DNA of 64,000 nt. Origin: Myxococcota bacterium (GTDB taxonomy: Bacteria; Myxococcota_A; UBA9160; UBA6930). Positions within the stretch are counted from its first letter, which is position 1, and every line of letters starts with the position of its first letter. The notes under the pieces were generated by a model that saw only the letters and a program-made list of their open reading frames with translations, did no database searches and had not been told where the DNA came from. Below, in pieces: positions 44,072 to 61,028 of this stretch. A program made the position numbers and the translations under genes. The stretch is from positions 4,864,001 to 4,928,000 of the forward strand of contig OZ245002.1 in NCBI GenBank assembly GCA_965223415.1. Reading direction: 5' to 3'.

Positions 44072-44081
44072 CGCGAAAACC

Positions 44082-46930: not shown

Positions 46931-47028
46931 GCCCCCCTCCCTCACGGGGAACGTGCCGCGCAGCGGCTCAACAGGAGGTGCGCAAATCTACGTGTCCTCT
47001 TAGCCCTCGAATATCACGTCCTGCGACA

Positions 47029-47520
47029 ACGCTCGAAGCGCACGGCATCTCGGTCGTGCTCTCGGGTGGAGCCGTCGTCTCGATCTACTCCGATGCGGAG
47101 TACGTCTCGTACGATCTCGATTTCATTCCCACGGGCCTCGCACGGAAAGTCGACACCGCCATGGAATCCCTCGGCTTCAAGAAGACCCAGCGGCACTGGA
47201 CGCATCCAAAGAGCCGCTACTGAGTCGAGTTCCCACCCGGCCCGGTGGCGATCGGAGACGAAACGATCCGCAGCTTCGCCGAGCGCGAGACGCGAATGGG
47301 GACGCTGCGACTGCTGGCTCCGACCGAGTGCGTCATGGACCGGCTCGCCGGGTACTTCCACGATGCGGACACGCAGTGCCTCGAACAGGCGATCCAGGTC
47401 GCGACGCGGCATCCCGTCGATCTGAAGCGCATCGCGAGGTGGGCGCGCGCTGAGCGGCCTCATGGTGAGGAACGCTACCGGGAGTTCGAGCGGCGGCTAC
47501 GCGAGACCGCGGGTCGGTAG
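47029..47520 (+). pseudogene. 5'-truncated nucleotidyltransferase, paralog of 60244-60795
   Basis: Begins at the IS21 end with TLEAHGISVVLSGGAVVSIYSD; TGG>TGA stop at 47221-47223; otherwise aligns with the intact copy. Confidence 0.88.
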
Positions 47521-47569
47521 CCGCTCTGACTGGCAGGATTCGAACCCCCGACCCTTGTATCTACTCCAC

Positions 47570-47745
47570 TCACCCGGATCTGGTTCAATAGGGTCAGAAC
47601 GGGTTTCGGGGGAGGGTCGCCGTCCCGACCCAGAGGCATGGTCCTCGTACCTGAGAGAGGCGCCCTCGCCCGATCTCGCAAGCTCGAACGGTATCCCGAG
47701 GCAGCGGTCTGCCGCTCGTCCTCGCATGCACAAGGAAGAGCACCG
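47570..47745 (+). ncRNA. Predicted IS110 bridge RNA, copy 1 (ends approximate)
   Basis: 5' hairpin; target loop with CCCGACCC (47624-31) and ACCTGAG (47649-55); donor loop with ACGGTATC (47688-95) and ACAAG (47730-34). Each guide matches the target or donor junction. Confidence 0.85.
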
Positions 47746-47794
47746 AGGTCGGCACCGAGGCTCCCGACGCTCCCGTTCGAGGAGGAAGAAGGGG

Positions 47795-48970
47795 ATGCGC
47801 TTCGTTGGGATCGACATCGCCTCGGAAACGCACGTCGTCGCGATGGTGGGAGAAGACGGGGGCGTGCTGCTGAAGCCGGTCTCGTTCCGGGAGGAGGCGG
47901 CTGGCTACGCACTGCTGTGGGAGAAGCTGGGAGGCCCCGAGGACACGCTCGTAACGCTCGAGGCAACGGGGCACTACTGGAAGAACCTGTTCGCGGCGCT
48001 TGCGGCGAGGGGTTTTGCCGTGGCGTTGATCAACCCGCTGCGCAGTCGCCGGTTCGCACAAGAAGACTTGGAGCGGACGAAGACCGACGCAATCGATGCG
48101 CTCGGCCTGGCTCGCTTCGGAGCACAGAAGCGTCCGAGGGTGACTCGCCTTCCGGACGCGGCGACAGAAGAGCTTCGTGAGCTCGTCCGGCTCCGCGATC
48201 GTCTGGTTCAGGACTTCGGGGACTGCACCCGGCGGCTCCACCGCATGGTCGATCTGGGCTTCCCAGAGCTCAAACGGTACGTGAAGCACCTCGATAGCCA
48301 GCTGTCGACGGGGCTGCTGCGGGAGTACCCCACGGCAAGAGCCTTCCAGGAAGCCTCTGTGGGGCGCGTGGCAAAGCTTCGCTACGACGGTCGTCATCGT
48401 GTAGGCGATGCGCTCGCGAAGCAGCTCGTCGAGGCTGCGCAGAACTCGGTGGGCGCCCATCATGGCCCGGCCTACCAGGTGCAGGTGCGTTACCTGTGCG
48501 AAGACATGGACGTCTTGCGCAAGAGACTCGGCGACATCGACCGCGACATCGCGGATCAGCTATCCGCGCACGAGGTCGGAAGCTTGCTGACGACGATCGA
48601 TGGGATCGGGCCGACGACGGCAGCACGGCTCATCGCGGAGCTCGGTGACCCGGCCGACTTCGCCACGGCCGCAGCCCTCGCCGCCTACGTGGGCGTCGTT
48701 CCAGGCCTAAAGCAGTCGGGCAAGCGCCAAGGCAAACGCGGGAACCTCTCGCCAATCGGTCACGCGCGGCTACGTCGCGCACTGTGGATGCCGACGTTGG
48801 TCGCCGTTCGGAAGAACCCCTGGGTGCGGGCCCACTACGAGCGGCTGCGCGACAACGGCAAGCCCGCAAAGGTCGCGCTGATCGCCTCGACGAGGAAGCT
48901 GCTCATCGCGGTTCACGTCGTGGCGAGGACCCGCAAGCCCTTCGTTCCACAGCTAGAGACCAACCCATGA
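47795..48970 (+). CDS. IS110 DEDD recombinase (391 aa)
   Basis: GIDIA, LEATG, KTDAID (DEDD); IDGIG; QSG serine loop; GAGGAGG upstream. Confidence 0.96.
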   Translation: MRFVGIDIASETHVVAMVGEDGGVLLKPVSFREEAAGYALLWEKLGGPEDTLVTLEATGHYWKNLFAALAARGFAVALINPLRSRRFAQEDLERTKTDAIDALGLARFGAQKRPRVTRLPDAATEELRELVRLRDRLVQDFGDCTRRLHRMVDLGFPELKRYVKHLDSQLSTGLLREYPTARAFQEASVGRVAKLRYDGRHRVGDALAKQLVEAAQNSVGAHHGPAYQVQVRYLCEDMDVLRKRLGDIDRDIADQLSAHEVGSLLTTIDGIGPTTAARLIAELGDPADFATAAALAAYVGVVPGLKQSGKRQGKRGNLSPIGHARLRRALWMPTLVAVRKNPWVRAHYERLRDNGKPAKVALIASTRKLLIAVHVVARTRKPFVPQLETNP

Positions 48971-49605
48971 ACCGAGAAAACCGGGCCCAGCCCCTTGCTG
49001 AAGATCACGGTATCTCAGGTTCGAAGCCTGATGCTCGATGTCGAGCCACCGGACAGCGCACTTCGAAGAACCGCGTGCATCCAGGCGTCAAGGGTCCGAG
49101 ATCAGGCGCTCCGCGCAACAACCAAGCACGACCAAAGTGCGGAACCAAGCACCGCCAGAACGCGAATTCCTCAGCGAATCCGGCGGCTTCTGGCGGGGCG
49201 GACGGGACTCGAACCTACAACCTCCGGCTGTAAGTCCGCGGAAACGCAGGGGTCCGAAGAGGTGAAGCTTGTATCCCGTTGTATCCCAACCGGGGCACGC
49301 CGGGCCAGGTAGGGCGATGGGGCGGCGGCGGGTAGCCGCCATCCCTCGGGTCCGCGAGCGAGCCCCCTTGCCAGCGCCTCGACGTGAGCTAAATCGGCAT
49401 TGGATCGCACGCAGACATCCCGGGGTCGAGGCCAAGGCGGCGTAGCCCCGGCATGGCTCTTGCGCGCGCCTTGTTGAGGATGTCGCCCGGGTCCGGGTGA
49501 GCTTCGCGTCCCCGCACTGCGGGGGCACGCATCTCCATCTCTTCAGGGCGCCACCGGTCCGCGATCGCGGCGCCCTGTCCCCTCGGCCGGGCGACGTGGG
49601 CCGGC

Positions 49606-50886
49606 TTGCGCGTCTTCTCCGTCTCGCTCTCGCTGCTCGTCGCCGTCGGGCTCTCGCTCGCAGGCAACGGCCTCCTCGGTACGCTGTCGGCACTTCGCCT
49701 CGCCGACGCAGCCCTGCCCGACGAACTGACCGGCCTCGTCCTCGCGGCGTACTTCGCAGGCCTCATGGCCGGCACGCTCGGGCTCGGGAGGACAGTGGCT
49801 CGGGTCGGTCACATCCGGTCCTTCGCGGCCTTCACGGCACTCGCCGTGTTCGCGGCGCTCGCCCAGGGCCTCACCTCGCCGGGCATGCTCTGGCTTCCGC
49901 TTCGGGCGATGACCGGACTGTGCATGGCCGGGACCTACCTGACCGTCGAGTCCTGGCTCCACGCGGAGGCCGGCCCGGAGAGCCGCGGCCGTGTGCTGGC
50001 CGCCTATCTCGTCGCACTCTACCTGGGTACCGGGGCCGGTCAGCTCCTGCTGCCGCTCGCGCCTACCGAGACCCTCGACGCGTTCGCGCTGGCTGCCCTG
50101 CTGACGAGCCTCGCAGTGGTCCCGGTCTGTCTGACGCGCGTTTCTGCACCTCGCCTCGAGCAAGCGGCGACCAGGGCGACCTCCGGGCTCGTGCGCGACG
50201 CGCCCCTCGGGCTCGGCGGGGCCCTCGTCTCGGGATTCGTCGCGGGCACCATCTACGCGAACGCACCGCTCCTTGGGCGCGCGACCGGCATGGAGTCGAC
50301 CGACGTTGCCGGCCTGATGGCCGCCTTCTTCGCGGGCGGCCTCGCCGGACAATGGCCGCTCGGCCGGCTTTCGGACCGCATGGATCGTCGGCTCGTTCTC
50401 TTGGGGGCGATGTTGGGTCTCGCTGGGCTCTGCGCCGCGTTCCTCTTAGTGGCCGCCACGCCTTCCACCATCTGGTGGGCGCTCGCCTTCGCGTTCGGCG
50501 CCCTGGCCTTTGCCCTCTACCCGCTGGCCGTGGCGCACACCATCGACCGGGTGGGTGCGAATCACTCGCTCCCGGCAACGAGTCAGCTCCTGCTGGCTTC
50601 GTCGATCGGCGCGTTCTCGGCACCGGTGCTCGTCGGCGCGGCGAGCCCCTGGCTCGGTGCTTCCGCGTTCCTCCAGCTCGACGCGCTGCTTCTGGTCGGC
50701 TTCAGCCTCGCGGCCTCGCTGCGGATCCTCCGTGTCGATCCGGTCCGCCAGGGTCCGTTCCAGCCCATGGCGAGGACGACACAAGCGGCGCACGAGCTCG
50801 ATCCGCGCCACAGCGGTGACGCTTCATCCCCCGGGCACCAAGCCTCGGTTCCCGCTCGACCCGCGACGGTCGGAGACACCCCATGA
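49606..50886 (+). CDS. MFS transporter (YcaD-like)
   Basis: GNGL, RVGHIR.F, VESWL, QWPLGRLSDR.DRR, LYP; about 12 TMs. Confidence 0.9.
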   Translation: MRVFSVSLSLLVAVGLSLAGNGLLGTLSALRLADAALPDELTGLVLAAYFAGLMAGTLGLGRTVARVGHIRSFAAFTALAVFAALAQGLTSPGMLWLPLRAMTGLCMAGTYLTVESWLHAEAGPESRGRVLAAYLVALYLGTGAGQLLLPLAPTETLDAFALAALLTSLAVVPVCLTRVSAPRLEQAATRATSGLVRDAPLGLGGALVSGFVAGTIYANAPLLGRATGMESTDVAGLMAAFFAGGLAGQWPLGRLSDRMDRRLVLLGAMLGLAGLCAAFLLVAATPSTIWWALAFAFGALAFALYPLAVAHTIDRVGANHSLPATSQLLLASSIGAFSAPVLVGAASPWLGASAFLQLDALLLVGFSLAASLRILRVDPVRQGPFQPMARTTQAAHELDPRHSGDASSPGHQASVPARPATVGDTP

Positions 50887-50944
50887 AGAACCGCCGGCCC
50901 GGCGACATCCCCCTCAGCCAGATTGCGAGCGCGAGGGCGGCAGC

Positions 50945-52132
50945 GTGAAGCTCGCCATCCTCTCGAGAGAACCGCGGAGCTACAGCACGCGCCGCCTGAA
51001 GGAAGCCGCGCGGGAGCGCGGCCATCGGGCCCGCGTACTCGATCCGACGCTGTTCTCGATCGAAGTCGCGAGCGGGAACCCACACCTCTACTACAGAGGG
51101 CGCGCGCTGGAGCGTTTCGACGCGGTGATCCCGCGTATCGGCGCCTCCATCACCTTCTTCGGAACGGCGGTCGTGCGTCAGTTCGAACAGATGGGCGTGT
51201 TCTGCGTGAACACGTCCACGGCCATCTCGACGTCGCGCGACAAGCTCCGGGCGCTCCAGATCCTGAGCCGGCACCACGTCGGCATCCCGAAGACGTCCTT
51301 CGTTCGCGAGAAGAACGCGATGCTCGAAACGGTGGAGCGGATGAAGGGCCCGCCGGTCATCGTGAAGTTGCTGGAAGGGAGTCAAGGTCTGGGTGTGATC
51401 CTCGCCGAGACGAAGAAGTCCGCGGAGGCGATCGTCGAAACGCTCCAGTTTGCGACGGGCAACAATGTCCTCATCCAGGAATTCGTGGCCGAGTCGCGCG
51501 GCCGCGACATCCGCGCCTTCGTTGTCGACGGCCGGGTCGTCGCGGCCATGCGGAGAACGGCGCAGGAGAGCGAGTTCCGGAGCAACGTCCATCGCGGCGG
51601 GCTGGCCGACGCGGTGGAGCTCGATCCTGTGTACGAGCGCACCGCCATCCACGCTGCCCAGATCCTCGGGCTCCGGGTCGCCGGCGTGGACATGCTCGAG
51701 GGCGCCGATGGCCCGATGCTGATGGAGGTGAACTCGTCGCCCGGCCTCGAGGGCATCGAAGGGGCGACTGGCGTCGACATCGCGGCGACCATTCTCGAGA
51801 TGATCGAAGATCAGGTGCTCTTCCCCGAGATCGACATCCGGCAGCGACTCACACTGCAGAGCGGGTACGGCGTGCTCGAGATCCCGATCGACCGCGGGTC
51901 CGAGCTGTGCGGGCGGACGATTCGCGAGTCCGGTCTGAAGGGTCGGGACGTCCTCGTCCTCCAGATCCAGCGTGGCAGCGTCACGATCCCCAACCCGAAG
52001 ACGAGCCGGGAGATCCTGGCTGGCGACGTGCTGCTCTGTTTCGGCAAGACGTTGACCCTCCGCACCCTGGCGCCGGCACCGCGACGTCGCAATCGGCGTC
52101 GCGGCTCGGCCGTGGGGGCCGCCGATGGCTGA
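50945..52132 (+). CDS. rimK: RimK-family ATP-grasp alpha-L-glutamate ligase with C-terminal RCK-C (TrkA-C) domain
   Basis: YSTRRL, IPRIGAS, SRDKLR, EFRSNVHRGG, EVNSSPGLEGIE; tail SEL.G.TI.E..L...V.VL.I.R..IPNP...I.AGD.L. Confidence 0.88.
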   Translation: MKLAILSREPRSYSTRRLKEAARERGHRARVLDPTLFSIEVASGNPHLYYRGRALERFDAVIPRIGASITFFGTAVVRQFEQMGVFCVNTSTAISTSRDKLRALQILSRHHVGIPKTSFVREKNAMLETVERMKGPPVIVKLLEGSQGLGVILAETKKSAEAIVETLQFATGNNVLIQEFVAESRGRDIRAFVVDGRVVAAMRRTAQESEFRSNVHRGGLADAVELDPVYERTAIHAAQILGLRVAGVDMLEGADGPMLMEVNSSPGLEGIEGATGVDIAATILEMIEDQVLFPEIDIRQRLTLQSGYGVLEIPIDRGSELCGRTIRESGLKGRDVLVLQIQRGSVTIPNPKTSREILAGDVLLCFGKTLTLRTLAPAPRRRNRRRGSAVGAADG

Positions 52133-53156
52133 ATGCGTCGAGATCGCGGGAGAGACGATTCGGCGCGGGGAACGTCGGCGAATCCAGATCCCGCTGGCGC
52201 TGCGGCCGACACAGGCCGAGGTCTCGATGTCCGCGGAGGTCATCTGCGGGGCCCGGGACGGGCCGCAGCTCTTCGTGTGCGCCGGCATTCATGGGGACGA
52301 GATCAACGGGGTCGAGATCATCCGGCGCGTGTTGCGCCGCTCGTTCCGGGGGCTTCGGGGGACGCTCCTGGCGGTTCCGATCGTGAACGTCCACGGATTC
52401 GTGGCCCACAGCCGAACCCTGCCCGACCGGAGGGATCTGAACCGCGCCTTCCCGGGCTCGCCCCGAGGATCGCTCGCGGCGCGGCTTGCGCACCAGTTCA
52501 TGGAGAACGTGGTCAAGGCTTCGACGCATGGCATCGATCTCCACACGGCGGCGATCCACCGGGAGAACCTCCCGCAGATCCGCGCCTGCCTCGACGACTC
52601 CGAGACCGAAGAGCTCGCGCGAGCGTTCGGTACGCCCGTTCTGCTCAACTCCGACCTGCGCGACGGGTCGCTCCGCGAGGCGGGACAGGAGCACGGGGTT
52701 CCGGTCCTCGTCTACGAGGGCGGCGAGGCGCTGCGATACAACGAGGCCGCCATCCGCGCCGGCGTGCGCGGGGTGCTTCGCGTGATGCGCCAGCTCAGGA
52801 TGCTCCCGGATGCGGGCGATCGGGGTCGTATCATCGAGCCGTTCGTCGCCCGCAGCAGTGCCTGGGTACGTGCGCCCGAAAGCGGGCTGCTGCGGGTCCG
52901 CGCCAAGCTCGGTGCTCGCGTCAAGAAGGGGTTCGTCCTCGGCGTCATCTCCGACCCGCTGGGCACGGAGGATACGACCGTCAGCGCGAGCCGCGCCGGA
53001 ATCGTGGTGGGCCGCACGCGTCTTCCCGTCGTGAACGAGGGCGATGCACTCTTCCATGTCGCGAGCTTTGACGCGGTGCAATCCGTGGCGCGGGAGGTCG
53101 AGTCCTTCCACGATGAGCTGTTTGATTCCGGCGTTTCGCCCCCCATGGCGGACTGA
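52125..53156 (+). CDS. Succinylglutamate desuccinylase/aspartoacylase (M14-like) family protein
   Basis: IHGDEING, DLNRAFPG, IDLHT, YEGGEALR. Confidence 0.92.
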   Translation: MAECVEIAGETIRRGERRRIQIPLALRPTQAEVSMSAEVICGARDGPQLFVCAGIHGDEINGVEIIRRVLRRSFRGLRGTLLAVPIVNVHGFVAHSRTLPDRRDLNRAFPGSPRGSLAARLAHQFMENVVKASTHGIDLHTAAIHRENLPQIRACLDDSETEELARAFGTPVLLNSDLRDGSLREAGQEHGVPVLVYEGGEALRYNEAAIRAGVRGVLRVMRQLRMLPDAGDRGRIIEPFVARSSAWVRAPESGLLRVRAKLGARVKKGFVLGVISDPLGTEDTTVSASRAGIVVGRTRLPVVNEGDALFHVASFDAVQSVAREVESFHDELFDSGVSPPMAD

Positions 53157-53170
53157 GAAGGAGCAGATCG

Positions 53171-54361
53171 ATGCGCGGTTGGATCCTCGACGGCAAGCCC
53201 GTCCCGGACCCCTCACTCGAAGGCTACGAAGTTCGTCGGTTCCTGGAGGTCGGCGAGAGAGTCGGCATCGATGTCGACCTGGTCACGCCCGAGCAGCTCG
53301 ATCTCGTGGTGACGAGCAGTGGCCGCCCGAGCATCGCGCGGAACGGCAGATCCGTTCCGCTCCCCGACTTCCTGCTTCCGCGCATGGGTGCTTACACGAC
53401 CTACTTCGGGCTTGCCGTGATCCGGCACCTGGAACGCCTGGGAGTGCTGACGGTCAACTCGGCCGAGAGCATCGACACCGTGAAGGACAAGCTCTTCACC
53501 CACCAGATCCTCGCTCAGAACGAGCTGCCGATCGCGCGAACGATGCTCGCCAAACATCCGCTCGACGTCGCCTTCGTGGAGAAAGAGATCGGATTCCCGG
53601 TCGTCGTGAAGACGATCACCGGATCCCAGGGGGCCGGTGTCTTCCTTTGCGAGGATCGTCACCACTTCGAGGATCTGATGGAGCTCGTTCTCGCCGCGCG
53701 CAGCAACGCGAACCTGATCCTCCAGGAGTACGTGGCCTCGAGTCGAGGGCGCGATCTCCGCGTGTTCACGGTCGGCGGCCGCGCCGTGGCCGCGATGGAA
53801 CGTTCTTCGCAGGACGGCTCGTTCAAGGCGAATGTCTCGAGGGGCGGACGGGCCACCGCCTACTCGTTGGACGCCGAGAGCGAGTGGCTGGCGCTCGAAG
53901 TCACGCGCTTGCTGGGTCTCGACGTGGCGGGGATCGATCTGCTCTTCGACGGCGACCACTACCTCGTCTGCGAGGCGAACTCGTCGCCCGGTTTCCGCGG
54001 TCTCGAGTCGTGCTGCGCCGTCAGCATCCCGCACGAGATCCTGCGCTTTGCTGCGCTCCGCCTCGGTCGCCACGACGTCGCCGACCGGCTCGAGGTGGAT
54101 CTCGCGGAGTCGTTCGGCGACCCGCCGGTCGGCGTTGCGAGCACATGGTCCAACGCGCACTGTGCGGTGAGCGCTAGCGGCACCAGCGACGCAGAGCGCG
54201 CGCTCGCCGAGGTGGGCGCGGTCAAGGGCCAGGGTGGCTGCATGGCGATCGATGGGCGGGGTCGCATCACGACGGTCCTGAACAGCCCGCAGATGGTGCG
54301 AGCATCGCTCGTCGAGGGCGAGCCCATGCGTCTCGGGATCTGGACGGATGACGATGCGTGA
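53171..54361 (+). CDS. Second RimK-like ATP-grasp ligase with C-terminal isoaspartyl-peptidase-like extension
   Basis: PRMG, KDKL, GSQGAGV, FKANVSRGG, CEANSSPGF; tail GDPPVG..TW...CAVSASG...GG..AID..G....NS..M.RA. Confidence 0.82.
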   Translation: MRGWILDGKPVPDPSLEGYEVRRFLEVGERVGIDVDLVTPEQLDLVVTSSGRPSIARNGRSVPLPDFLLPRMGAYTTYFGLAVIRHLERLGVLTVNSAESIDTVKDKLFTHQILAQNELPIARTMLAKHPLDVAFVEKEIGFPVVVKTITGSQGAGVFLCEDRHHFEDLMELVLAARSNANLILQEYVASSRGRDLRVFTVGGRAVAAMERSSQDGSFKANVSRGGRATAYSLDAESEWLALEVTRLLGLDVAGIDLLFDGDHYLVCEANSSPGFRGLESCCAVSIPHEILRFAALRLGRHDVADRLEVDLAESFGDPPVGVASTWSNAHCAVSASGTSDAERALAEVGAVKGQGGCMAIDGRGRITTVLNSPQMVRASLVEGEPMRLGIWTDDDA

Positions 54362-54420
54362 CCACGACCTGCCTGGGCTGCCGCCCGGACTCACCCGCCG
54401 AACCCGACTTGGAGGCCGCC

Positions 54421-54765
54421 GTGGAAATCGCAAGAACTGGTGAGATCGTCCACATCATCGAGCGGCGCCTGTTCGTCGGTGATGTCCGCCGCCACTTCGT
54501 CGGAGAGGTCGAGGCGTGCGCCGACCGTGCGCTTCGGGTTCGTGGTTATCTCTTCGTCTATGACTCCTCCGAGAGCGCGTTCACGAAGAAGCCCGAGCTC
54601 CGCACTCGAATCTTCCCGCTCGACAATCGGCTGATCCTGAGCCTTTTGCCGCAGGGGACACACCTGGAACAGGTCCGATACGACCACGACGACGAGGGCA
54701 ACCTGTCCCTGGTCGACGGAGCCGACCTCGAGCTCGACATCAGCGAGTTCAGCTCCCGGGAGTAA
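54421..54765 (+). CDS. Hypothetical protein (start approximate)
   Basis: GGAGG RBS before GTG; last gene of the cassette operon. Confidence 0.6.
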   Translation: MEIARTGEIVHIIERRLFVGDVRRHFVGEVEACADRALRVRGYLFVYDSSESAFTKKPELRTRIFPLDNRLILSLLPQGTHLEQVRYDHDDEGNLSLVDGADLELDISEFSSRE

Positions 54766-54843
54766 CGGCCGCTCCGGAACCCCTCAGGCCGCGCGGGGCG
54801 TCCGTTGCACGGAGGCCTTCACCCCGCGTGCATGGAAACGGGG

Positions 54844-55140
54844 CACCACCCCCAGGTTCGAAGCCTGGTGCTCAACCTCGCTCCGCGCGGACACGAGCGC
54901 GCGTGTCGGCGAAGCTGGAACCCGCTTGGTTCCCGGATGTATCCCGCGCGCGTCGCGGCTCGACAACCGCTGCTCGCGCGTGGACTTACGCGCGAAGCGT
55001 GCGGGTTCCGAGAAACCCGAAAAGCTGAATGAAATCAGCTTGATGGCGGGGCGGACGGGACTCGAACCTACAACCTCCGGCTGTAACCTCCCGGAAACAC
55101 AGGGGTCCGAAGAGATGAAGCTTGTATCCCGTTGTATCCC
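54844..55140. repeat. tRNA-derived spacer repeat B
   Basis: CCCAGGTTCGAAGCCTGGTGCTC; divergent middle; core 55044-55086; TTGTATCCCGTTGTATCCC tail. Confidence 0.9.
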
Positions 55141-55258
55141 GACTTCGCCGGATCGCCATCGGGATGCTTGGCCACCGGCCTTCCGCCAGGACCGAGCCCG
55201 TGCGGAGCCGTGTGGCGCGCGCCTTGCCGTCATGACTGAATCCAACTATCGTACGTAC

Positions 55259-55486
55259 ATGACGAAGAGGCTGACGCGCTCTGGAAACAGCCTGGCCCTC
55301 GTGATCGATCGGCCTCTCCTGGAAGCGCTGGAAATCGACGCGGACACGGAGCTGGAGCTCTCCACCGATGGAGACGTCCTAGTCGTGACCCCGCTGCGCG
55401 ACCCCAAGCGGAGGCGTCGGGTCGCCGAGCTCGTTGCCGAAGCCCACGAGCAGTACGGCGGCGTGTTCCGACGCCTCGCCGAGTGA
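55259..55486 (+). CDS. AbrB/MazE-fold antitoxin
   Basis: KRLTRSGNSLALVID; stop overlaps the toxin GTG. Confidence 0.88.
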   Translation: MTKRLTRSGNSLALVIDRPLLEALEIDADTELELSTDGDVLVVTPLRDPKRRRRVAELVAEAHEQYGGVFRRLAE

Positions 55487-55875
55487 CCGACCCGCTCTTC
55501 CTGACCCTCGACGAGGTTCTGGCGATCCACGCCGATCAGATCCGGCGCTACGGCGGGCGGACTGGGCTGCGAGACATCGGCTTGCTGCAATCGGCGTTGG
55601 GCATGCCCGAGGCCACCTTCGAGGGCGAGTTCCTTCACGGGACGGTCTTCGAAATGGCCGCCGCCTACCTGTTCCACATCGCCCGCAACCACCCGTTCGT
55701 GGACGGCAACAAGCGAACAGCACTCATGTGCGCACTGGTGTTCCTCGGACTGAGCGGTTGGCGACTCGAGGCGGAGTCGGAGGCGCTCTACGAGCTGGTC
55801 GACGGCGTTGCCGCGGGGTCGATCGACAAGGCCGGGGTCGCGGTCTTCCTGCGCCAGAACTCCGTCAGCCGCTAG
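55483..55875 (+). CDS. doc: Doc (Fic-family) toxin
   Basis: HPFVDGNKRTA; G.RD..LL.SA...P. Confidence 0.92.
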   Translation: MTDPLFLTLDEVLAIHADQIRRYGGRTGLRDIGLLQSALGMPEATFEGEFLHGTVFEMAAAYLFHIARNHPFVDGNKRTALMCALVFLGLSGWRLEAESEALYELVDGVAAGSIDKAGVAVFLRQNSVSR

Positions 55876-55917
55876 TCGGGCCCAGCGCACGGGTGATTCG
55901 CTTGCCCCAACGCAGGC

Positions 55918-56190
55918 GACTCGAACCCCCGACCCCCCGGTTCGAAGCCTGATGCTCAACCCCGTGCGGCGAGTCGCGTGGATGCAGGCGTCAGGAGTCC
56001 GAGATCAGGCGCTCGCCGCGACAACCAAACGCAACCAAAGGCCGGAACCAAGCACCGCCAGAATGCGAATTCCCCTGCGAATCCGGCTACTTCTGGCGGG
56101 GCGGACGGGACTCGAACCTACAACCTCCGGCTGTAACTCCGCGGAAACGCAGGGGTCCAGGGAGCTGAAGCTGGTATCCCGTTGTATCCC
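55918..56190. repeat. tRNA-derived spacer repeat C (intact, empty)
   Basis: TCGAACCCCCGACCCCCCGGTTCGAAGCCTGATGCTC; middle shared with A, D and E; core 56094-56136; GTATCCC pair. Confidence 0.92.
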
Positions 56191-56206
56191 GACCTCCGAT
56201 CGCGCT

Positions 56207-56235
56207 CCGACATCTGATAGCCAATTGGCTATTAT
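56207..56235 (+). promoter_or_regulatory. Promoter with palindromic operator for the HTH-NTase pair
   Basis: CCGACA-17-TATTAT; perfect palindrome ATAGCCAATTGGCTAT at 56217-56232; ATG 6 nt after the -10. Confidence 0.7.
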
Positions 56236-56241
56236 TCGAGC

Positions 56242-56568
56242 ATGTCGATCGCGAGCATCGTCCGCGAGGCCCGCCGCCGCGCGGGCCTCACCCAGGCCGC
56301 GTTGGCGGAGAAGGCGGGCGTTCCCAAGTCCACCGTCGGCCGGATCGAGTCTGGGGCGCGAACACCTTCGGTGGAGCTCGTGGAGCGACTCGTCGAGGCG
56401 GCTGGTCTGGAGGTCACGATTGCCCTGTCGGAACCCGATCCCGGCACCGACTCGATGTTCGAACGCACGCTGCGCCGCACCCCTGCAGAGCGGCTCGCCG
56501 ATGCGACGCGAGTCGCGCGCTTCGTCTTGCGCGGCAAGCGCCAGATCGCGGCCGCTTCCGATGGCTAG
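56242..56568 (+). CDS. XRE-family HTH protein (putative antitoxin/regulator)
   Basis: REARRRAGLTQAALAEKAGV..STVGRIESG..PS. Confidence 0.88.
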   Translation: MSIASIVREARRRAGLTQAALAEKAGVPKSTVGRIESGARTPSVELVERLVEAAGLEVTIALSEPDPGTDSMFERTLRRTPAERLADATRVARFVLRGKRQIAAASDG

Positions 56569-57076
56569 CGCCGACTTCGACCCGGAGAGAATGCTCTCCG
56601 CTCTGGCCGCGGAAGGCGTGCAGTTCGTGCTGATCGGTGGGATGGGGGCCATCCTGCACGGCGACGTCGGCGTCACCGTCGATCTGGACGTGGTCCCCGA
56701 CCGCGACGCCGCGAACCTCCAACGTCTCGCGCGAGCTCTCCGGACACTTGGAGCGCGCATCCGAACCGAGGGCGAGCCGGAGGGACTGGCCTTCGACTGC
56801 TCGGCACAGTTCTTCGCCAACCTGTCACCCGACTCGATCGTGAACATGACCACGGAGGCGGGCGATCTGGACGTCACGTTCTGCCCGAGCGGAACCCAAG
56901 GCTTCAAGGACCTTCGGCGCGATGCGATCGAGATCGAAGCGGCGAAGCGCCTCCACATCCTGGTCGCATCACTCGGAGACATCATCCGCTCGAAGGAAGC
57001 CGCCGGCCGCGACAAGGACCGCCTCGCCCTTCCCCGCCTTCGCAGGCTGCTGGACCGCCTCGGCGAGAGCGAGTAG
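56561..57076 (+). CDS. Nucleotidyltransferase-fold protein (putative toxin; AbiEii/DUF6036-like)
   Basis: VLIGG.G..HG..T.DLD, later D, SK..AGR.KD. Confidence 0.8.
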   Translation: MASADFDPERMLSALAAEGVQFVLIGGMGAILHGDVGVTVDLDVVPDRDAANLQRLARALRTLGARIRTEGEPEGLAFDCSAQFFANLSPDSIVNMTTEAGDLDVTFCPSGTQGFKDLRRDAIEIEAAKRLHILVASLGDIIRSKEAAGRDKDRLALPRLRRLLDRLGESE

Positions 57077-57120
57077 CCGCGACCTGGGACTCGAACCCCC
57101 AACCCTTGTATCTACTCCAC

Positions 57121-57296
57121 TCACCCGGATCTGGTTCAATAGGGTCAGAACGGGTTTCGGGGGAGGGTCGCCGTCCCGACCCAGAGGCATGGTCCTCGTA
57201 CCTGAGAGAGGCGCCCTCGCCCGATCTCGCAAGCTCGAACGGTATCCCGAGGCAGCGGTCTGCCGCTCGTCCTCGCATGCACAAGGAAGAGCACCG
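57121..57296 (+). ncRNA. Predicted IS110 bridge RNA, copy 2 (ends approximate)
   Basis: Same sequence as copy 1, offset 9551. Confidence 0.85.
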
Positions 57297-57345
57297 AGGT
57301 CGGCACCGAGGCTCCCGACGCTCCCGTTCGAGGAGGAAGAAGGGG

Positions 57346-58521
57346 ATGCGCTTCGTTGGGATCGACATCGCCTCGGAAACGCACGTCGTCGCGATGGTGG
57401 GAGAAGACGGGGGCGTGCTGCTGAAGCCGGTCTCGTTCCGGGAGGAGGCGGCTGGCTACGCACTGCTGTGGGAGAAGCTGGGAGGCCCCGAGGACACGCT
57501 CGTAACGCTCGAGGCAACGGGGCACTACTGGAAGAACCTGTTCGCGGCGCTTGCGGCGAGGGGTTTTGCCGTGGCGTTGATCAACCCGCTGCGCAGTCGC
57601 CGGTTCGCACAAGAAGACTTGGAGCGGACGAAGACCGACGCAATCGATGCGCTCGGCCTGGCTCGCTTCGGAGCACAGAAGCGTCCGAGGGTGACTCGCC
57701 TTCCGGACGCGGCGACAGAAGAGCTTCGTGAGCTCGTCCGGCTCCGCGATCGTCTGGTTCAGGACTTCGGGGACTGCACCCGGCGGCTCCACCGCATGGT
57801 CGATCTGGGCTTCCCAGAGCTCAAACGGTACGTGAAGCACCTCGATAGCCAGCTGTCGACGGGGCTGCTGCGGGAGTACCCCACGGCAAGAGCCTTCCAG
57901 GAAGCCTCTGTGGGGCGCGTGGCAAAGCTTCGCTACGACGGTCGTCATCGTGTAGGCGATGCGCTCGCGAAGCAGCTCGTCGAGGCTGCGCAGAACTCGG
58001 TGGGCGCCCATCATGGCCCGGCCTACCAGGTGCAGGTGCGTTACCTGTGCGAAGACATGGACGTCTTGCGCAAGAGACTCGGCGACATCGACCGCGACAT
58101 CGCGGATCAGCTATCCGCGCACGAGGTCGGAAGCTTGCTGACGACGATCGATGGGATCGGGCCGACGACGGCAGCACGGCTCATCGCGGAGCTCGGTGAC
58201 CCGGCCGACTTCGCCACGGCCGCAGCCCTCGCCGCCTACGTGGGCGTCGTTCCAGGCCTAAAGCAGTCGGGCAAGCGCCAAGGCAAACGCGGGAACCTCT
58301 CGCCAATCGGTCACGCGCGGCTACGTCGCGCACTGTGGATGCCGACGTTGGTCGCCGTTCGGAAGAACCCCTGGGTGCGGGCCCACTACGAGCGGCTGCG
58401 CGACAACGGCAAGCCCGCAAAGGTCGCGCTGATCGCCTCGACGAGGAAGCTGCTCATCGCGGTTCACGTCGTGGCGAGGACCCGCAAGCCCTTCGTTCCA
58501 CAGCTAGAGACCAACCCATGA
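57346..58521 (+). CDS. IS110 DEDD recombinase (391 aa)
   Basis: Protein identical to 47795-48970. Confidence 0.96.
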   Translation: MRFVGIDIASETHVVAMVGEDGGVLLKPVSFREEAAGYALLWEKLGGPEDTLVTLEATGHYWKNLFAALAARGFAVALINPLRSRRFAQEDLERTKTDAIDALGLARFGAQKRPRVTRLPDAATEELRELVRLRDRLVQDFGDCTRRLHRMVDLGFPELKRYVKHLDSQLSTGLLREYPTARAFQEASVGRVAKLRYDGRHRVGDALAKQLVEAAQNSVGAHHGPAYQVQVRYLCEDMDVLRKRLGDIDRDIADQLSAHEVGSLLTTIDGIGPTTAARLIAELGDPADFATAAALAAYVGVVPGLKQSGKRQGKRGNLSPIGHARLRRALWMPTLVAVRKNPWVRAHYERLRDNGKPAKVALIASTRKLLIAVHVVARTRKPFVPQLETNP

Positions 58522-58887
58522 ACCGAGAAAACCGGGCCCAGCCCCTTGCTGAAGATCACGGTATCTCAGGTTCGAAGCCTGGTGCACAAGCCGGTTCAGA
58601 GAGGCTCGCGGATGCAGGCGTCAGGGGTCCGAGATCAGGCGCTCGCCGCGACAACCGAGCGCGACCAAAGAGCGGAACAAACCGCTGCCAGAGCGCGAAG
58701 CGAAAAGCTGAATGAAATCAGCTAGACGGCGGGGCGGACGGGCTCGAACGCGCGGAGCCCGGCGATAAGGGCCCGGAATCGTGAGGGTTTTCCTCGCCGG
58801 TGCTCAAGCTGTGCTCAAGGAAGCCTCGGAGGCCAGGCCGGCGGGATCGTGTTGTTGGAGTACGGTCCTGACGATATGGTTACCCGT

Positions 58888-59133
58888 ATGAAGACGACAG
58901 TCGAGATTCCGGATCCGCTGGCCGACGAAGCCAAGGCCGTCGCGCAGCGCGACAAGACCACGCTTCGCGAGCTCATCGAGACGGGACTTCGACTGGTGCT
59001 TCGAGAGCGACGGCGCAAGACCCGCTTTCGCCTTTGCGACGCCAGCTTCCGAGGACGCGGGCTTCAGCCGGAGTACCAGGACGAAGACTGGCAGCGGATT
59101 CGAAACGCTGCCTACAAGGGCCGCGGCGGTTGA
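58888..59133 (+). CDS. VapB-like RHH antitoxin (DUF2191-like)
   Basis: MKTTVEIPD.L..EAK..A..TLRELIE.GLR. Confidence 0.85.
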   Translation: MKTTVEIPDPLADEAKAVAQRDKTTLRELIETGLRLVLRERRRKTRFRLCDASFRGRGLQPEYQDEDWQRIRNAAYKGRGG

Positions 59134-59564
59134 TCGCCGTCGACACGAATCTCCTCGTCTACGCCCACCGCGCAGAATCCGATTGGCACGGTCGAGCTGC
59201 GGCATGCGTTCGCGAGCTCGCAGACGCGAGAGCGCCGTGGGCCATCCCGTGGCCATGCATCCACGAGTTCCTCGCCATCGCGACCCATCCCAGGATCTGG
59301 GACCCGCCCTCGCCCACGGAGGCGGCGCTCGACCAGGTCGAAGCCTGGATCGAATCGCCCGGGCTGGTCTTGCTCGCGGAGGGCGCGGATCACTGGAGCG
59401 AGCTTCGCGGCCTGGTCGAGGCCAGTCGCATCGTGGGGCCGCGGGTCCACGACGCGCGCATCGCAGCTCTTTGCCGCGCGCATGGCGTACGCGAACTATG
59501 GACAGCGGACCGCGACTTCAGCCGGTTCTCGAGCCTCGTCACGGTGAACCCGCTGACTCGCTAG
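59130..59564 (+). CDS. vapC: VapC PIN-domain toxin
   Basis: IAVDTNLLVYA, EF, HDARIAA, TADRDF. Confidence 0.92.
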   Translation: MIAVDTNLLVYAHRAESDWHGRAAACVRELADARAPWAIPWPCIHEFLAIATHPRIWDPPSPTEAALDQVEAWIESPGLVLLAEGADHWSELRGLVEASRIVGPRVHDARIAALCRAHGVRELWTADRDFSRFSSLVTVNPLTR

Positions 59565-59591
59565 CCGGGGCATCGCACGCTGCAACAGGCG

Positions 59592-59795
59592 ATCCCCAAC
59601 CCTCGGGGTTGGAGCCCAACCAGGCGCTCGTGGCGACAACCGAGCACGACCAAAGCGCGGAACCAAGCGCCGCCAGAACGCGAATTCCTCAGCGAATCCG
59701 GCGGCTCGTGGCGGGTCGGACGGGACTCGAACCTACAACCCCCGGCCGTAACCCCTCGGAAACGCAAGGGTTCGTAGGACTGCAGCTTGTATCCC
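59592..59795. repeat. tRNA-derived spacer repeat E (shortened left part)
   Basis: CCCCAACCCTCGGGGTTGGAGCC; middle close to repeat A; core 59709-59751; TTGTATCCC. Confidence 0.88.
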
Positions 59796-59840
59796 GCCAT
59801 CGCCCCGCCCTCCCTGGGCCTTGCGCCCGGGCTTGGGCCA

Positions 59841-59885
59841 ATAACCCAAGAATAAGGTTATAAAACCTATTATTTGGGTTATACT
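59841..59885 (+). promoter_or_regulatory. AT-rich 42-bp inverted repeat (operator) overlapping a -10 box
   Basis: ATAACCCAA..AGGTT / AACCT..TTGGGTTAT at 59841-59882; TATACT at 59880. Confidence 0.75.
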
Positions 59886-59914
59886 TCACGCCGGAATCGA
59901 CGGGTGGACCCAGC

Positions 59915-60247
59915 ATGCTCGAAGGCATCTTCGGAAACGCCAGCGCGGAAAAGGTCCTCCTCTATCTGGAGCAGTACGAGGAAGGGTACGCGACGGCGAT
60001 GGCTCGAACTTTCGACGACCTCTCGCTGAACATGGCCCAGCGGCAGCTCGAGCGGTTCGAGCGGGCCGGTGCGCTTGTGAGCTCACTCCGAGGCCGAACC
60101 CGCCTCTACACATGGAATCCTCGCTACCCGTTTCGCCGGGAGCTGCGGGCCCTGCTTCGCAAGGCCCTCGACCAACTGCCCGCCTCCGAGCGGAAGCGCT
60201 ACTTCACCGAGCGCAGACGGCCGCGCCGTGCGGGCAAGCCACTGTGA
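59915..60247 (+). CDS. Winged-helix protein (putative antitoxin/regulator)
   Basis: LEGIFGN..EKVLLYL..Y...A..Q.QL.RFE..G.L.S..G.TRLY..NP.YPF. Confidence 0.75.
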   Translation: MLEGIFGNASAEKVLLYLEQYEEGYATAMARTFDDLSLNMAQRQLERFERAGALVSSLRGRTRLYTWNPRYPFRRELRALLRKALDQLPASERKRYFTERRRPRRAGKPL

Positions 60248-60795
60248 ACGCGCAGCATCGGATCGACGAGGACACCTCCCTCGAGGAGGTCGCCGCTCTC
60301 GTCTGCACGACCCTCGAGGCGCACGGCATCTCGGTCGTGCTCTCCGGCGGCGCCGTCGTCTCGATCTACTCCGACGCCGAATACGTCTCCTACGACCTGG
60401 ACTTCATCCCGATCGGACTCGCTCGGAAAGTCGATGGCGCCATGGAGTCACTCGGCTTCGAGAAGCGGCAGCGCCACTGGACGCATCACCGAAGCCGGTA
60501 CTGGGTCGAGTTCCCTCCCGGCCCCGTCGCCATCGGGGAAGAGACGATTCGCAGCTTTGCGGAACGCGAGACCCGGGCAGGGACCCTGCGCCTCCTCGCT
60601 CCGACCGAGTGCGTGATGGATCGGCTGGCCTGGTATTTCCATGACGCGGACACGCAGTGCCTCGAGCAGGCGGTTCGTGTTGCGACGCTCCAGCCGGTGG
60701 ACCTGAAGCGCATCGAACGGTGGGCGCGCGGCGAAGGGCCTCGTGGCGAGGAGCGATTTCGGGAGTTCGAGCGGAGGCTGCACGAGAAGAAATGA
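60244..60795 (+). CDS. Nucleotidyltransferase-fold protein (putative toxin)
   Basis: VLSGGA..IYS..Y.S.DLDF, EFP, DRLA; GTG overlaps the upstream stop. Confidence 0.78.
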   Translation: MNAQHRIDEDTSLEEVAALVCTTLEAHGISVVLSGGAVVSIYSDAEYVSYDLDFIPIGLARKVDGAMESLGFEKRQRHWTHHRSRYWVEFPPGPVAIGEETIRSFAERETRAGTLRLLAPTECVMDRLAWYFHDADTQCLEQAVRVATLQPVDLKRIERWARGEGPRGEERFREFERRLHEKK

Positions 60796-60816
60796 CGCGG
60801 ACTTGCGCGTCGTCGC

Positions 60817-61028
60817 GGTGCAGGGGGGTGCAATAGGGTGCAGGGAGGTGTCGTTTCGACGGCACCGAACCGCGGGACGGCACCATACAGAGCGCGAACG
60901 GGTAGGTTCCGGACCTGCCCGAGCGGGATTCGAACCCCCGACCCCCAGGTTCGAAGCCTGAACGGACCCGTAGGAAATCCAAATGGTTGCGCGATTCCGA
61001 GCGGGAATGAACGGGAATACGCGGGAAT
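60817..61028. repeat. tRNA-derived repeat F: tRNA-Arg(UCG) 3' fragment flanked by phased direct repeats
   Basis: Fragment at 60916-60960 (minus strand CAGGCTTCGAACCTGGGGGTCGGGGGTTCGAATCCCGC); GGTGCA at 60817/60827/60837; CGGGAAT at 61002/61012/61022. Confidence 0.85.

Follow-up and report, generated by a model that had tools for sequence, protein, structure and literature searches.

Small gene cassettes alternating with putative tRNA-Asp-derived attachment-site remnants in a Myxococcota genome

How does a run of small gene cassettes come to alternate with repeated, tRNA-derived sequence? The locus that raises this question lies in a 64,000-nucleotide stretch of a Myxococcota bacterium genome (contig OZ245002.1, positions 4,864,001 to 4,928,000; hereafter the window). 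Over 14 kb, five small cassettes, mostly toxin-antitoxin pairs, alternate with five co-oriented units, A–E, that look like conserved remnants of integrase attachment sites from a tRNA-Asp gene (Table 1). An earlier reading, made from the sequence alone (the sequence-only reading), had listed six related units; five of these stand, and the sixth, F, is a different site. The orientations given in that reading were confirmed, with all cassette genes on the plus strand and all unit matches on one strand (gene list and nhmmer).

Table 1. Features of the array and its left flank, in window coordinates.
Feature	Position	Strand	Content
tRNA-Arg(CCU) 3' fragment	44082..44127	-	Anticodon loop to CCA; directly upstream of integrase gene, diverging
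Tyrosine integrase 5' part	44270..44751	+	About 160 codons with arm-binding domain; ended by IS21
IS21-family insertion sequence	44752..47004	-	istA, istB on minus strand; Pfam IstB_IS21 E 1.7e-70, rve, Mu-transpos_C_2
Truncated NTase paralogue	47021..47520	+	Lacks 5' part; related to NTase-like gene of last cassette
Unit A left part	47534..47554	-	T-arm end of tRNA-Arg(UCG)-like piece, separated by IS110
IS110-family element copy 1	47555..49015	+	Pfam DEDD_Tnp_IS110, Transposase_20; NCBIfam IS110 RNA-guided transposase 252 bits
Unit A right part	49016..49290	-	Rest of Arg piece, middle, core, spacer, two GTATCCC repeats
Cassette 1	49606..54765	+	MFS transporter, RimK-type ATP-grasp, AstE/AspA-type deacylase, second RimK, 135-aa protein
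Unit B	54848..55143	-	Arg piece, divergent middle, Asp core, two GTATCCCG repeats
Cassette 2	55232..55875	+	MazE/AbrB-type antitoxin, Doc (Fic) toxin; Pfam MazE_antitoxin, Fic
Unit C	55918..56193	-	Arg piece (D loop to T loop), middle, Asp core, two GTATCCCG
Cassette 3	56242..57076	+	Xre-type HTH protein (HTH_3, E 4e-15) and small NTase-like protein
Unit D left part	57086..57105	-	T-arm end of Arg piece
IS110-family element copy 2	57106..58566	+	Occupies the position of copy 1 in Arg piece
Unit D right part	58567..58820	-	Arg piece, middle, hairpin and T-run, Asp segment, type 2 arm
Cassette 4	58876..59564	+	VapB-like antitoxin and VapC (PIN) toxin
Unit E	59602..59806	-	Partial middle, variant Asp core (3 mismatches), one GTATCCCG; no Arg piece
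Cassette 5	59915..60795	+	Winged-HTH protein and small NTase-like protein
Site F	60820..61030	-	tRNA-Arg(UCG) fragment, anticodon arm to acceptor 3' strand, ~60915-60961

The repeats are real and far beyond chance. A window scan found three exact copies of the 43-nt core (at 49191, 55044 and 56094) and a further copy with 3 mismatches (at 59709), in keeping with the claim that it is identical in A, B and C and variant in E; 100 of 100 shuffled sequences gave 0 matches. The shared blocks of the units were also recovered by self-BLAST and repeat finding. All window matches to nhmmer profiles of the core/tail, the middle and the Arg piece fall within 47–61 kb on one strand, so that the units are clustered and co-oriented, not dispersed, as the sequence-only reading had proposed to check. 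The middle is common to A, C, D and E and not B, as originally described. The window contains 11 copies of the motif GTATCCCG, where 1.2 would be expected, and 7 of the 11 lie inside A, B, C and E, the four units to which a GTATCCC tail had been assigned.

Other parts of the initial description required revision. The 1.7-kb non-coding units reported for A and D are each a normal unit split by an IS110-family element; the two elements agree at 1461 of 1461 positions, whereas their flanks agree at only 19/30 and 21/30. The core spans 49191–49233 in unit A. Unit D, said to carry a truncated core, belongs to a distinct type with other paired repeats, matched in two related loci of a Myxococcota MAG (L003 and L005): its Asp acceptor/T-loop segment (58727–58749) has a T loop one base short, its type 2 arm consists of two GTGCTCAAG repeats (58800–58819), and its hairpin was flagged as terminator-like on the minus strand. 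The Arg piece ascribed to A–E is present in four of the five, and also at F, but not in E; in A, C and D it stops sharply just past its own T loop. In unit B, the middle holds one extra GTATCCCG as well as a hairpin and T-run immediately past the CCA of the tRNA, and repeats flank the core on both sides in an attP-like arrangement. Site F has only a roughly 35–45-nt tRNA-Arg(UCG) fragment in common with the units and no Asp core, and is flanked by two sets of three repeats, GGTGCA-type on one side and GGGAATAC-like on the opposite side; we regard it as a putative Arg-type att junction, not an Asp-type unit. The T-loop deletion in D and the arm repeat lost from E may mean that some of the sites are dead.

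Judged by its sequence, the 43-bp core derives from the 3' part of tRNA-Asp(GUC). An intact tRNA-Asp(GUC), called by ARAGORN and by Rfam at 70.8 bits, stands at the head of a related array (locus L002), and its last 43 nt differ from the core at 3 positions within the ~37 nt that begin with the 3' strand of the anticodon stem and end in CCA, in our reading of the alignments. Two units follow this tRNA on the same strand, the last adjoining high-GC3 acyl-CoA dehydrogenase genes. We aligned 19 units of all types and, separately, 12 type-1 units. All unit types in the 19-unit alignment share with the real tRNA-Asp no more than the T loop, the 3' strands of the T stem and of the acceptor stem, and CCA; similarity ends on either side of the T loop, varying by copy. 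Type 2 units (window D and its aligned counterparts at L003 ~17593 and L005 ~5068; the type occurs twice in a Myxococcota MAG) and a type 3 unit (L003 ~1501) diverge just past the T loop; the unit at L003 ~11619 keeps the P side and the T loop, with its acceptor strand replaced by unrelated sequence. The repeat motif switches along with the unit type, and in B-type units (window B, L004, L006 ~10032 and L002 ~6713) GTATCCC motifs flank the core on either side.

The best reading, held with moderate confidence, is that CIME-like modules lacking an integrase accreted in tandem at a tRNA-Asp-type site, the array being a presumptive stack of att junctions left by repeated site-specific integration there. 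In the tRNA direction, which is the window minus strand, a unit would run from an integrase "P arm" through a ~35-nt spacer to the tRNA-Asp-derived core ending in CCA and on to a far part. The P arm contains two 10-bp-spaced direct repeats, GTATCCCG in type 1 and GTGCTCAAG in type 2. The paired GTATCCCG repeats resemble the arm sites of an integrase, and the two kinds of pair would be arm-type sites bound by integrases with at least two specificities. Beyond the core lies an attP-like far arm (in B) or else sequence resembling the DNA downstream of tRNA-Asp, and this downstream part often continues into the tRNA-Arg(UCG) fragment. Strand exchange would take place at or beside the T loop: the crossover probably falls between CCA and the T loop because this is the only part common to all unit types and the real tRNA. 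Each cassette would be one promoter-bearing operon of 0.8–5.6 kb, a module without integrase bounded by att sites, and the cassettes were probably added successively by integrases encoded elsewhere.

The earlier view of tRNA-derived att-type junctions separating small, co-oriented, integrase-less cassettes survives, whereas the active "capture platform" served by an integrase in trans found no support. The window has neither an intact tRNA-Asp nor an intact integrase. Action in trans remains an assumption, because no integrase able to use these sites was found anywhere. Several features argue against accretion. The middle present in units A, C and E, and partly in D, is the sequence that adjoins the chromosomal genes ending the L002 array; under simple serial integration this flank should appear a single time, at the far end. 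A model based on Asp sites only also leaves the tRNA-Arg(UCG) piece unexplained. The T stem of the type-1 core is mismatched, so that a crossover 5' of it would not yield a good tRNA.

The cassettes are cleanly bounded, with 10–118 bp between genes and units for cassettes 2–5. The first gene after the P arm reads away from it in all five window cassettes and in 8 of 12 related units (2 opposite, 2 ambiguous, according to our GC3-based gene calls, backed by Pfam). Most gene names given earlier held: the two RimK proteins, AstE, MFS, the MazE-like/Doc pair (NCBIfam doc_partner, and DOC_P1 at 61.8 bits), the Xre-type HTH protein and VapC (Pfam PIN; NCBIfam TIGR00028, 90.3 bits against a cut-off of 73.6). 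VapB is a weak match (Pfam VapB_antitoxin, E 0.0029, 17.9 bits against a cut-off of 23.4), and the 135-aa protein of cassette 1 matches no known family in Pfam or NCBIfam. The "NTase" names are softer. They come from a G-G...D-x-D pattern read by eye in both translations, a below-cut-off DUF6036 match in cassette 3 (E 3e-4), and Atlas neighbours, taken as leads only, in DUF6036/DUF2204/AbiEii clusters for cassette 3 and including DUF2204/DUF6036 clusters for the second protein of cassette 5. Cassette 3, which has a palindrome upstream (56217–56232), is toxin-antitoxin-like judged from its layout; the winged-HTH protein of cassette 5 matches PADLOC PDC-M05A (E 6e-6). The truncated NTase gene is 81% identical to 60303–60787 in DNA and 81% in amino acids (tblastn). 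The two paralogous NTase cassettes, each ending beside an Arg piece, are the only cassette seen twice, both within the window; between genomes, none was seen in two contexts.

At its left, the array is bordered by the remains of a tyrosine integrase gene (Pfam Arm-DNA-bind_3, E 3.7e-15). Most of the 120 homologues listed are ~380–450 aa long (full range 310–510) and most also carry Phage_integrase; the gene at 44270 has only about 40% of the full length. It is a poor candidate for the enzyme of the array: it is truncated, lies beside a tRNA-Arg(CCU) fragment and has no GTATCCCG copy nearby. This fragment, called by neither ARAGORN nor Rfam, has a T arm, acceptor 3' strand, G73 and CCA at standard spacing and lacks the 5' half. 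The IS21 element, with 31-nt terminal inverted repeats (84% complementary, one beginning at 44752), bridges the integrase stump and the truncated NTase gene. An IS3 element is present as well, alongside the IS21 and two IS110 elements. The only window "tRNA" called by ARAGORN (59085–59169) falls within vapBC and is spurious; no intact tRNA-Asp was found in the window, so the array cannot be placed at a demonstrable attB. The window array is an orphan, without intact tRNA-Asp or linked integrase and since cut by IS21 and IS110.

Co-oriented units recur in four MAGs. On scaffold CAMYLJ010000017.1, a stretch of about 50 kb (7.1 kb of it outside the examined loci) contains 8 Asp-type units, all on the same strand. 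BLASTN matches between the window and the related loci are confined to the units, and the 13 window cassette proteins and the IS110 transposase gave 0 tblastn matches in L001–L006. The cargo of the related arrays, mostly ordinary metabolic genes, is wholly unlike that of the window. Thus, conserved units separate completely different cargo in other genomes, a variation that the sequence-only reading had suggested looking for, and the enrichment in toxin-antitoxin and defence genes that it proposed applies to this window but not to the related arrays. Two MAG units match unit A at 96% and 94% identity, against 80–94% for its neighbours in the window, a between- versus within-genome comparison weakened by the inconsistent taxonomic labels of the MAGs. 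No integrase domain was found in any cassette (Pfam, NCBIfam), as had been claimed; Phage_integrase was likewise absent from the ~77 kb of related loci, where the integrase stump used as a tblastn query had no match.

The same observations bear on three other explanations. It is possible, if rather unlikely, that full-size integrase-bearing islands or prophages at tRNA-Asp were deleted down to att junctions and addiction modules, which resist loss, and that nothing here ever moved as a mini-element. Decay is indeed evident in the IS3, IS21 and two IS110 elements, the truncated integrase and NTase genes and the damaged sites in D and E; toxin-antitoxin modules are the expected survivors, the cassettes on the MAG scaffold are larger and metabolic, and CIMEs are described as usually arising by decay of ICEs or IMEs (PMC5704250). 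However, four cassettes are single intact operons lying 10–118 bp from units with no pseudogene debris, so that eight deletions ending at unit edges would be needed. In addition, 13 of 17 first genes past the P arm share one orientation, a bias unlikely to outlast random decay, and both paralogous NTase cassettes end beside an Arg piece.

We consider it improbable that the units act mainly as 100–280-bp repeats for RecA-dependent recombination, with incoming two-unit DNA adding or replacing cargo, unit-by-unit recombination deleting it, and site-specific recombination required for the founding event only. Such exchange has been proposed for "minimal mobile elements". It would easily explain the repeated, native-flank-like middle and suits units 80–96% identical over at least 100 nt within and between genomes, with no integrase present. 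Against it, conservation is highest at the T-arm segment and the paired repeats, lower in the spacer, and ends sharply with the last repeat, a pattern better suited to protein-binding sites than to plain homology; two arm types, each with its own paired repeats, are intact in two genomes, and the recombinant joints lie at the T loop. A genome-wide MITE/REP-like element or a repeat-driven misassembly is hardly credible: although an assembler could swap the segments to the right of the IS110 copies, which are 100% identical over 1461 bp, such a swap would leave the alternating pattern unchanged, and the units differ mutually by 6–20% (hence are not collapsed repeats), lack terminal inverted repeats, have 0 copies in the other 50 kb of the window, all lie on one strand, and show the same clustering and single strand in four independent MAG assemblies.

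Tandem accretion has precedent in published descriptions of tandem t(m)RNA-site islands, some without integration modules, and of the CIME/accretion model (PMC3146451, PMC5704250, PMC4383910). The Dehalococcoides ssrA islands, as described by McMurdie et al. 2011 (PMC3146451), resemble the window array in their many co-oriented t(m)RNA 3'-end repeats downstream, the extra conserved sequence beside each repeat and an insertion point inferred in the T loop, with strain-specific cargo; fifteen of them have no integration module and were proposed to be cis-mobilizable. According to the same account, those arrays begin at an intact ssrA, with a serine recombinase and a 20-bp repeat, and sixteen islands have a six-gene integration module. 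In contrast, the window array has a tRNA-Asp-derived site, a 100–280-bp repeat, paired arm-type repeats of at least two kinds and cassettes that are mostly a single 0.8–1.1-kb operon, with no intact tRNA and no integrase. CIMEs, in the ICESt1/CIME account for Streptococcus (PMC5704250), likewise retain attL and attR but carry no genes for integration or transfer; they stand in tandem at a target gene's 3' end, and a neighbour's integrase can mobilize them. They are described there as decayed ICEs or IMEs of several kb, usually single or paired, with cis-mobilization proven experimentally, whereas the window has five or more very small putative modules with two heterologous arm types.

Sedentary chromosomal integrons and CALINs, as portrayed in PMC8618304, resemble the array in several respects: small cassettes stand in tandem and in one orientation, a conserved recombination site bounds each of them, two-gene toxin-antitoxin cassettes occur, some arrays (CALINs) have no integrase, and related sites appear across diverse hosts. 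Integron identity was nevertheless rejected on integrase, attC and cassette structure: the window has no IntI, attI or Pc promoter, its sites are tRNA-derived, double-strand att-type sites with arm repeats, not folded attC hairpins, and each cassette has an upstream region of its own and at most five genes. Among islands catalogued by Islander (PMC4383910), element ends are also marked by tRNA-oriented 3' tDNA fragments, the known crossover classes include both T-stem/T-loop and anticodon-loop, and tandem arrays are recognised, with 4 arrays of three or more reported among 3919 islands.

Serial site-specific insertion is a known process, which here looks unusually compact. Excision would be possible in principle through recombination between neighbouring cores, and toxin-antitoxin cargo would counter loss through such direct-repeat recombination. 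Since the window array passes none of the three filters described for Islander (an intact tDNA, an integrase per island and a length of at least 2 kb; PMC4383910), arrays of this kind would escape cataloguing.

The repeated units at 47–61 kb proposed in the sequence-only reading are real. Three exact copies of the 43-nt core, the 3' part of a tRNA-Asp ending in CCA, and one copy with three mismatches lie in the window; 100 shuffles produced no match at all. Repeat finding, self-BLAST and alignment also recovered a 'middle' segment and a tRNA-Arg(UCG)-like piece (the Arg piece) common to the units, and in profile searches of the window every match to the core, middle and Arg piece fell within 47–61 kb on a single strand. 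The region is a tandem array of five cassettes, each bounded by a recombination site (the non-coding units A–E).

The anatomy of individual units differs from that reading in several respects. Units A and D, taken as long non-coding wholes, are each a unit split by an IS110-family element, and no Arg piece was found in unit E by alignment or profile search. Unit D does not have a truncated core; it belongs to a second site type, matched at two positions in related loci (L003 ~17593 and L005 ~5068). F, listed as a further related unit, has only a tRNA-Arg(UCG) fragment in common with the units that carry an Arg piece; it lacks the Asp core, and the triple repeats on its flanks are its own. In the units, Rfam detected neither a tRNA nor any other family, at gathering or at E ≤ 10, and no intact tRNA gene was found in the window by ARAGORN or Rfam, at the array end or elsewhere. 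The sole 'tRNA' called by ARAGORN in the window is spurious, sitting within vapBC, and a weak sX15-like Rfam match within IS110 was ignored (23 bits against a cut-off of 55). Unit C had no informative BLASTN matches in phage and plasmid collections. For a 55-nt core query against phages, the 30 records listed of 390 showed matches to phage tRNA genes only, and no myxophage was among them.

Features of the array and its left flank, in window positions
Feature	Position	Strand	Content
IS3-type remnant	43097-44120		HTH_28 fragment and rve_3 fragment in different ORFs
tRNA-Arg(CCU) 3' half	44082-44127	minus	Anticodon loop to CCA, well formed; directly upstream of the truncated integrase gene, diverging
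Tyrosine integrase stump	44270-44751		Arm domain (Arm-DNA-bind_3-type), first ~160 codons
IS21-family element	44752-47004		31-nt terminal inverted repeats; joins integrase stump to truncated NTase gene
IS110-family element, copy 1	47555-49015		5' non-coding part at ~47606-47656
Cassette 1	49606-54765	plus	MFS transporter, RimK, AstE, RimK, protein without known family
Cassette 2		plus	MazE/AbrB-like antitoxin, Doc
Cassette 3		plus	Xre-HTH protein, small NTase-like protein
Palindrome	56217-56232		Perfect, 16 bp; just upstream of the Xre-HTH gene of cassette 3
Promoter-like match	56207-56235		Spans the palindrome
IS110-family element, copy 2	57106-58566
Cassette 4		plus	VapB-like protein (weak; Pfam E 0.0029, under cut-off), VapC (solid)
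Cassette 5		plus	Winged-HTH protein, second NTase-like protein

A genome scan with 23 nt of the core gave six related loci (L001–L006) from four MAGs, whose contigs carry inconsistent labels. One of these, L002, has an intact tRNA-Asp(GUC) gene (ARAGORN; 70.8 bits in Rfam), and we read the alignments as showing only three mismatches between its 3' end and the core. The alternative assignment of the core to tRNA-Val(UAC) was dropped after this gene was found. From the tRNA gene, L002 runs through an acyltransferase gene, a unit, epimerase and Maf genes and a second unit into high-GC3 acyl-CoA dehydrogenase genes, with all features on the tRNA strand and no integrase. Such an order is classical for elements that have stacked up beside a tRNA gene, and it reveals the nature of the window units.

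We aligned 19 units overall and, separately, the 12 units of type 1. The only segment common to all units and the real tRNA extends from CCA through the 3' strands of the acceptor and T stems to the T loop. Beyond the T loop in the 5' direction, the units fall into at least three types: type 1 terminates in a pair of GTATCCCG repeats at a 10-bp spacing; type 2, comprising window unit D and its two counterparts in L003 and L005, terminates in two GTGCTCAAG repeats; and type 3 is represented by L003 ~1501. At least four kinds of sequence occur in the 3' direction. In the unit at L003 ~11619, the type-1 side and T loop are retained and unrelated DNA replaces the acceptor strand. Since similarity breaks at the T loop from both directions, strand exchange probably took place there. 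In the B-type units (window B, L004, L006 ~10032 and L002 ~6713), the GTATCCC motif is also found across the core on the other side, as in an attP whose two arms both carry arm sites.

Conservation among type-1 units peaks in the tRNA-derived segment and the repeats, is lower in the spacer and ends abruptly past the second repeat. In four related units, ~95 bp past the second GTATCCC repeat are also conserved (L001 ~3410-3500, L003 ~9840-9930, L005 ~9840-9930 and L006 ~6840-6930); this extension is absent from the window units. The myxophage Mx8 integrates into tRNA-Asp genes. For this phage, an attP inside int and two attB sites are described. We considered whether the P arm likewise encodes the last part of an integrase gene and rejected this for the conserved extension, because its four copies are distinguished by indels of 1 and 3 nt and it is therefore non-coding.

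The middle adjoins chromosomal genes where the L002 array ends, yet units A, C, D and E each have a copy. In A, C and D, the Arg piece stops sharply a little beyond its own T loop, and it runs on into the acceptor strand in F and two L005 copies. Either a native tRNA-Asp–spacer–tRNA-Arg pair or a second, Arg-type exchange site would account for the repeated middle and the Arg-piece end. The IS110-family elements that split A and D are identical at 1461 of 1461 positions, and their 30-nt flanks match at 19 and 21 positions; they are two insertions that hit one position in diverged copies of the Arg piece. Use of the same position despite diverged flanks indicates that IS110 insertion is target-specific. 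The 5' non-coding part of the element contains 7-8-nt matches to both insertion-site flanks, as a guide ('bridge') RNA would; with about one 8-mer match expected by chance, we take this as a lead only.

The gene names given to the cassettes in the sequence-only reading were borne out by Pfam and NCBIfam, with a solid VapC and a weak VapB. The two NTase calls are based on a sub-threshold DUF6036 match, Atlas neighbours (DUF6036/DUF2204/AbiEii clusters, used as leads only) and a G-G...D-x-D pattern that we read in the translations; PDB sequence searches with both proteins returned nothing. Four of the five cassettes are 0.8–1.1 kb in size, and their boundaries are clean (10–118 bp). Each cassette carries 2–5 genes with 48–118 bp of its own upstream DNA (~300 bp for cassette 1). 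No integrase domain was found in any cassette, nor were relics of conjugation or integrase genes found inside cassettes 1–5. In cassette 1, the two RimK-type ATP-grasp ligases are ~40% identical to each other and accompany an AstE/AspA-type deacylase, the MFS transporter and the familyless protein of 135 aa, possibly forming a small peptide- or amino-acid-modifying operon. The palindrome upstream of the Xre-HTH gene looks like an autoregulation operator of cassette 3. The promoter/terminator scan as a whole was at the chance level (one promoter-like site against 0.8 expected; eight terminator-like sites against 7.3).

The G+C content of the window falls from ~75% to ~65% from ~33 kb onward (~0.72–0.77 in 1-33000 and ~0.63–0.73 in 33000-64000), well before the array, and the low-GC part opens with polysaccharide-synthesis, sulfatase and VWA genes. 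A conserved protein used to place the organism taxonomically had matches of at most 42% identity. To the left of the array lie, in order, the IS3-type remnant, the tRNA-Arg(CCU) fragment, the integrase stump, the IS21 element and a truncated NTase gene, which is a 5'-truncated paralogue of the NTase gene in the last cassette. The tRNA-Arg(CCU) fragment probably belongs to a different island as its att fragment. Among the 120 listed homologues of the integrase stump, most have a length of ~380–450 aa. The stump is separated from the array by the IS21 element, whose position between it and the truncated NTase gene implies that the intervening DNA was lost or rearranged. That this integrase served the array is unlikely, because the stump lies beside the fragment of another tRNA and there is no copy of GTATCCCG nearby.

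Cargo in the related arrays differs wholly from that in the window, as expected if content varies between conserved units. None of 13 window cassette proteins was matched in the related loci by tblastn of defined proteins, which was used in place of an unfiltered tblastx of the array, discarded for high-GC noise; in BLASTN, the units alone match. For unit A, identity is 96% and 94% with two MAG units, compared with 80–94% with its own neighbours. On scaffold CAMYLJ010000017.1, eight Asp-type units, all on the same strand, are spread over ~50 kb (7.1 kb of it outside the fetched loci), together with an F-like Arg fragment and ordinary cargo (nitrile hydratase, flavin monooxygenase, methyltransferase, cytochrome P460 and regulators). 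In ~77 kb of related loci, a scan of 53 GC3-called ORFs and of 51 out of 120 stop-to-stop gap ORFs, picked by length, detected no tyrosine-integrase domain. The first gene past the P arm reads away from the arm in five of five window cassettes; by our own gene calls for 12 related units, it reads away in eight, in the opposite direction in two and ambiguously in two. One MAG-scaffold unit is split ~3 kb apart (L006 6931-10032) by an insert that contains a cytochrome P460 gene and a transposase of the IS3 family (rve).

As the best account, we propose that integrase-less modules accreted in tandem at a tRNA-Asp-type site through integrases of at least two arm specificities; the toxin-antitoxin cargo would hold the array together. 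Among the closest known elements are cis-mobilizable elements (CIMEs), which are att-flanked and lack integration and transfer genes, as do the array cassettes. Earlier reports describe the CIME/accretion model and also tandem islands at t(m)RNA genes, some of which have no integration module (PMC3146451, PMC5704250, PMC4383910). Compared with the Islander signature, the array has 3' tRNA fragments in tRNA orientation at element ends (five Asp fragments, all on the minus strand), whereas an intact tRNA gene at one array end is present in L002 but not in the window, and the signature's own integrase and at least 2 kb per member contrast with no integrase and four of five cassettes of 0.8–1.1 kb.

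The array shares with integrons tandem cassettes that are each bounded by a recombination site. However, integron cassettes generally consist of one ORF and a recombination site under a common promoter, whereas those of the array contain several genes with their own upstream regions. No intI with an adjacent attI was found at the array head in the window, where the stump is the sole integrase, or in the related loci. The units are not attC sites, as they have no spanning inverted repeat, and their single-strand DNA folds are no stabler than shuffles (z = 0.15, 0.37, -1.44 and -1.14). The array is not an integron and resembles one in function only; its closest counterpart among integrons is the CALIN, an integron-like cassette array without an integrase, as described in PMC8618304. 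Dispersed MITE/REP-like repeats are scattered in both orientations and have terminal inverted repeats or target duplications, whereas the units, in the window and related loci alike, are clustered on a single strand without terminal inverted repeats. That the units are tRNA-like decoys for tRNA-targeting toxins was rejected, since the same kind of unit flanks ordinary metabolic genes in related arrays.

Relative to known tandem islands and CIMEs, what is unusual about tandem accretion at this tRNA-Asp-type site is the cassette size, the clean boundaries, the long conserved junction, the two site types within one array and the absence of both the tRNA and the integrase. Full-text literature searches yielded no account of comparable cassette arrays derived from tRNA-Asp. 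A more far-reaching proposal, which we consider improbable, is that Myxococcota-like high-GC bacteria possess a second, non-integron gene-cassette system, in which dedicated tyrosine integrases encoded elsewhere in the genome would shuffle single-operon cassettes between arrays at a conserved 100–280-bp site made of the tRNA-Asp T-loop end and paired arm repeats, with at least two site specificities sharing one array; a tRNA-Arg-derived second site across each cassette might then allow two-site exchange.

Tools that demand an integrase, an intact tRNA gene and a size above 2 kb would filter out such arrays, and their frequency would be underestimated. If the cassettes are immobile, the array is still a clear record of the repeated use of one tRNA T-loop site, and the toxin-antitoxin pairs would be the last survivors of element decay. 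If they move, the units would constitute a natural set of short, sequence-defined att sites with two specificities on one target, and the arrays would be a compact way to collect and exchange single operons that would escape island finders.
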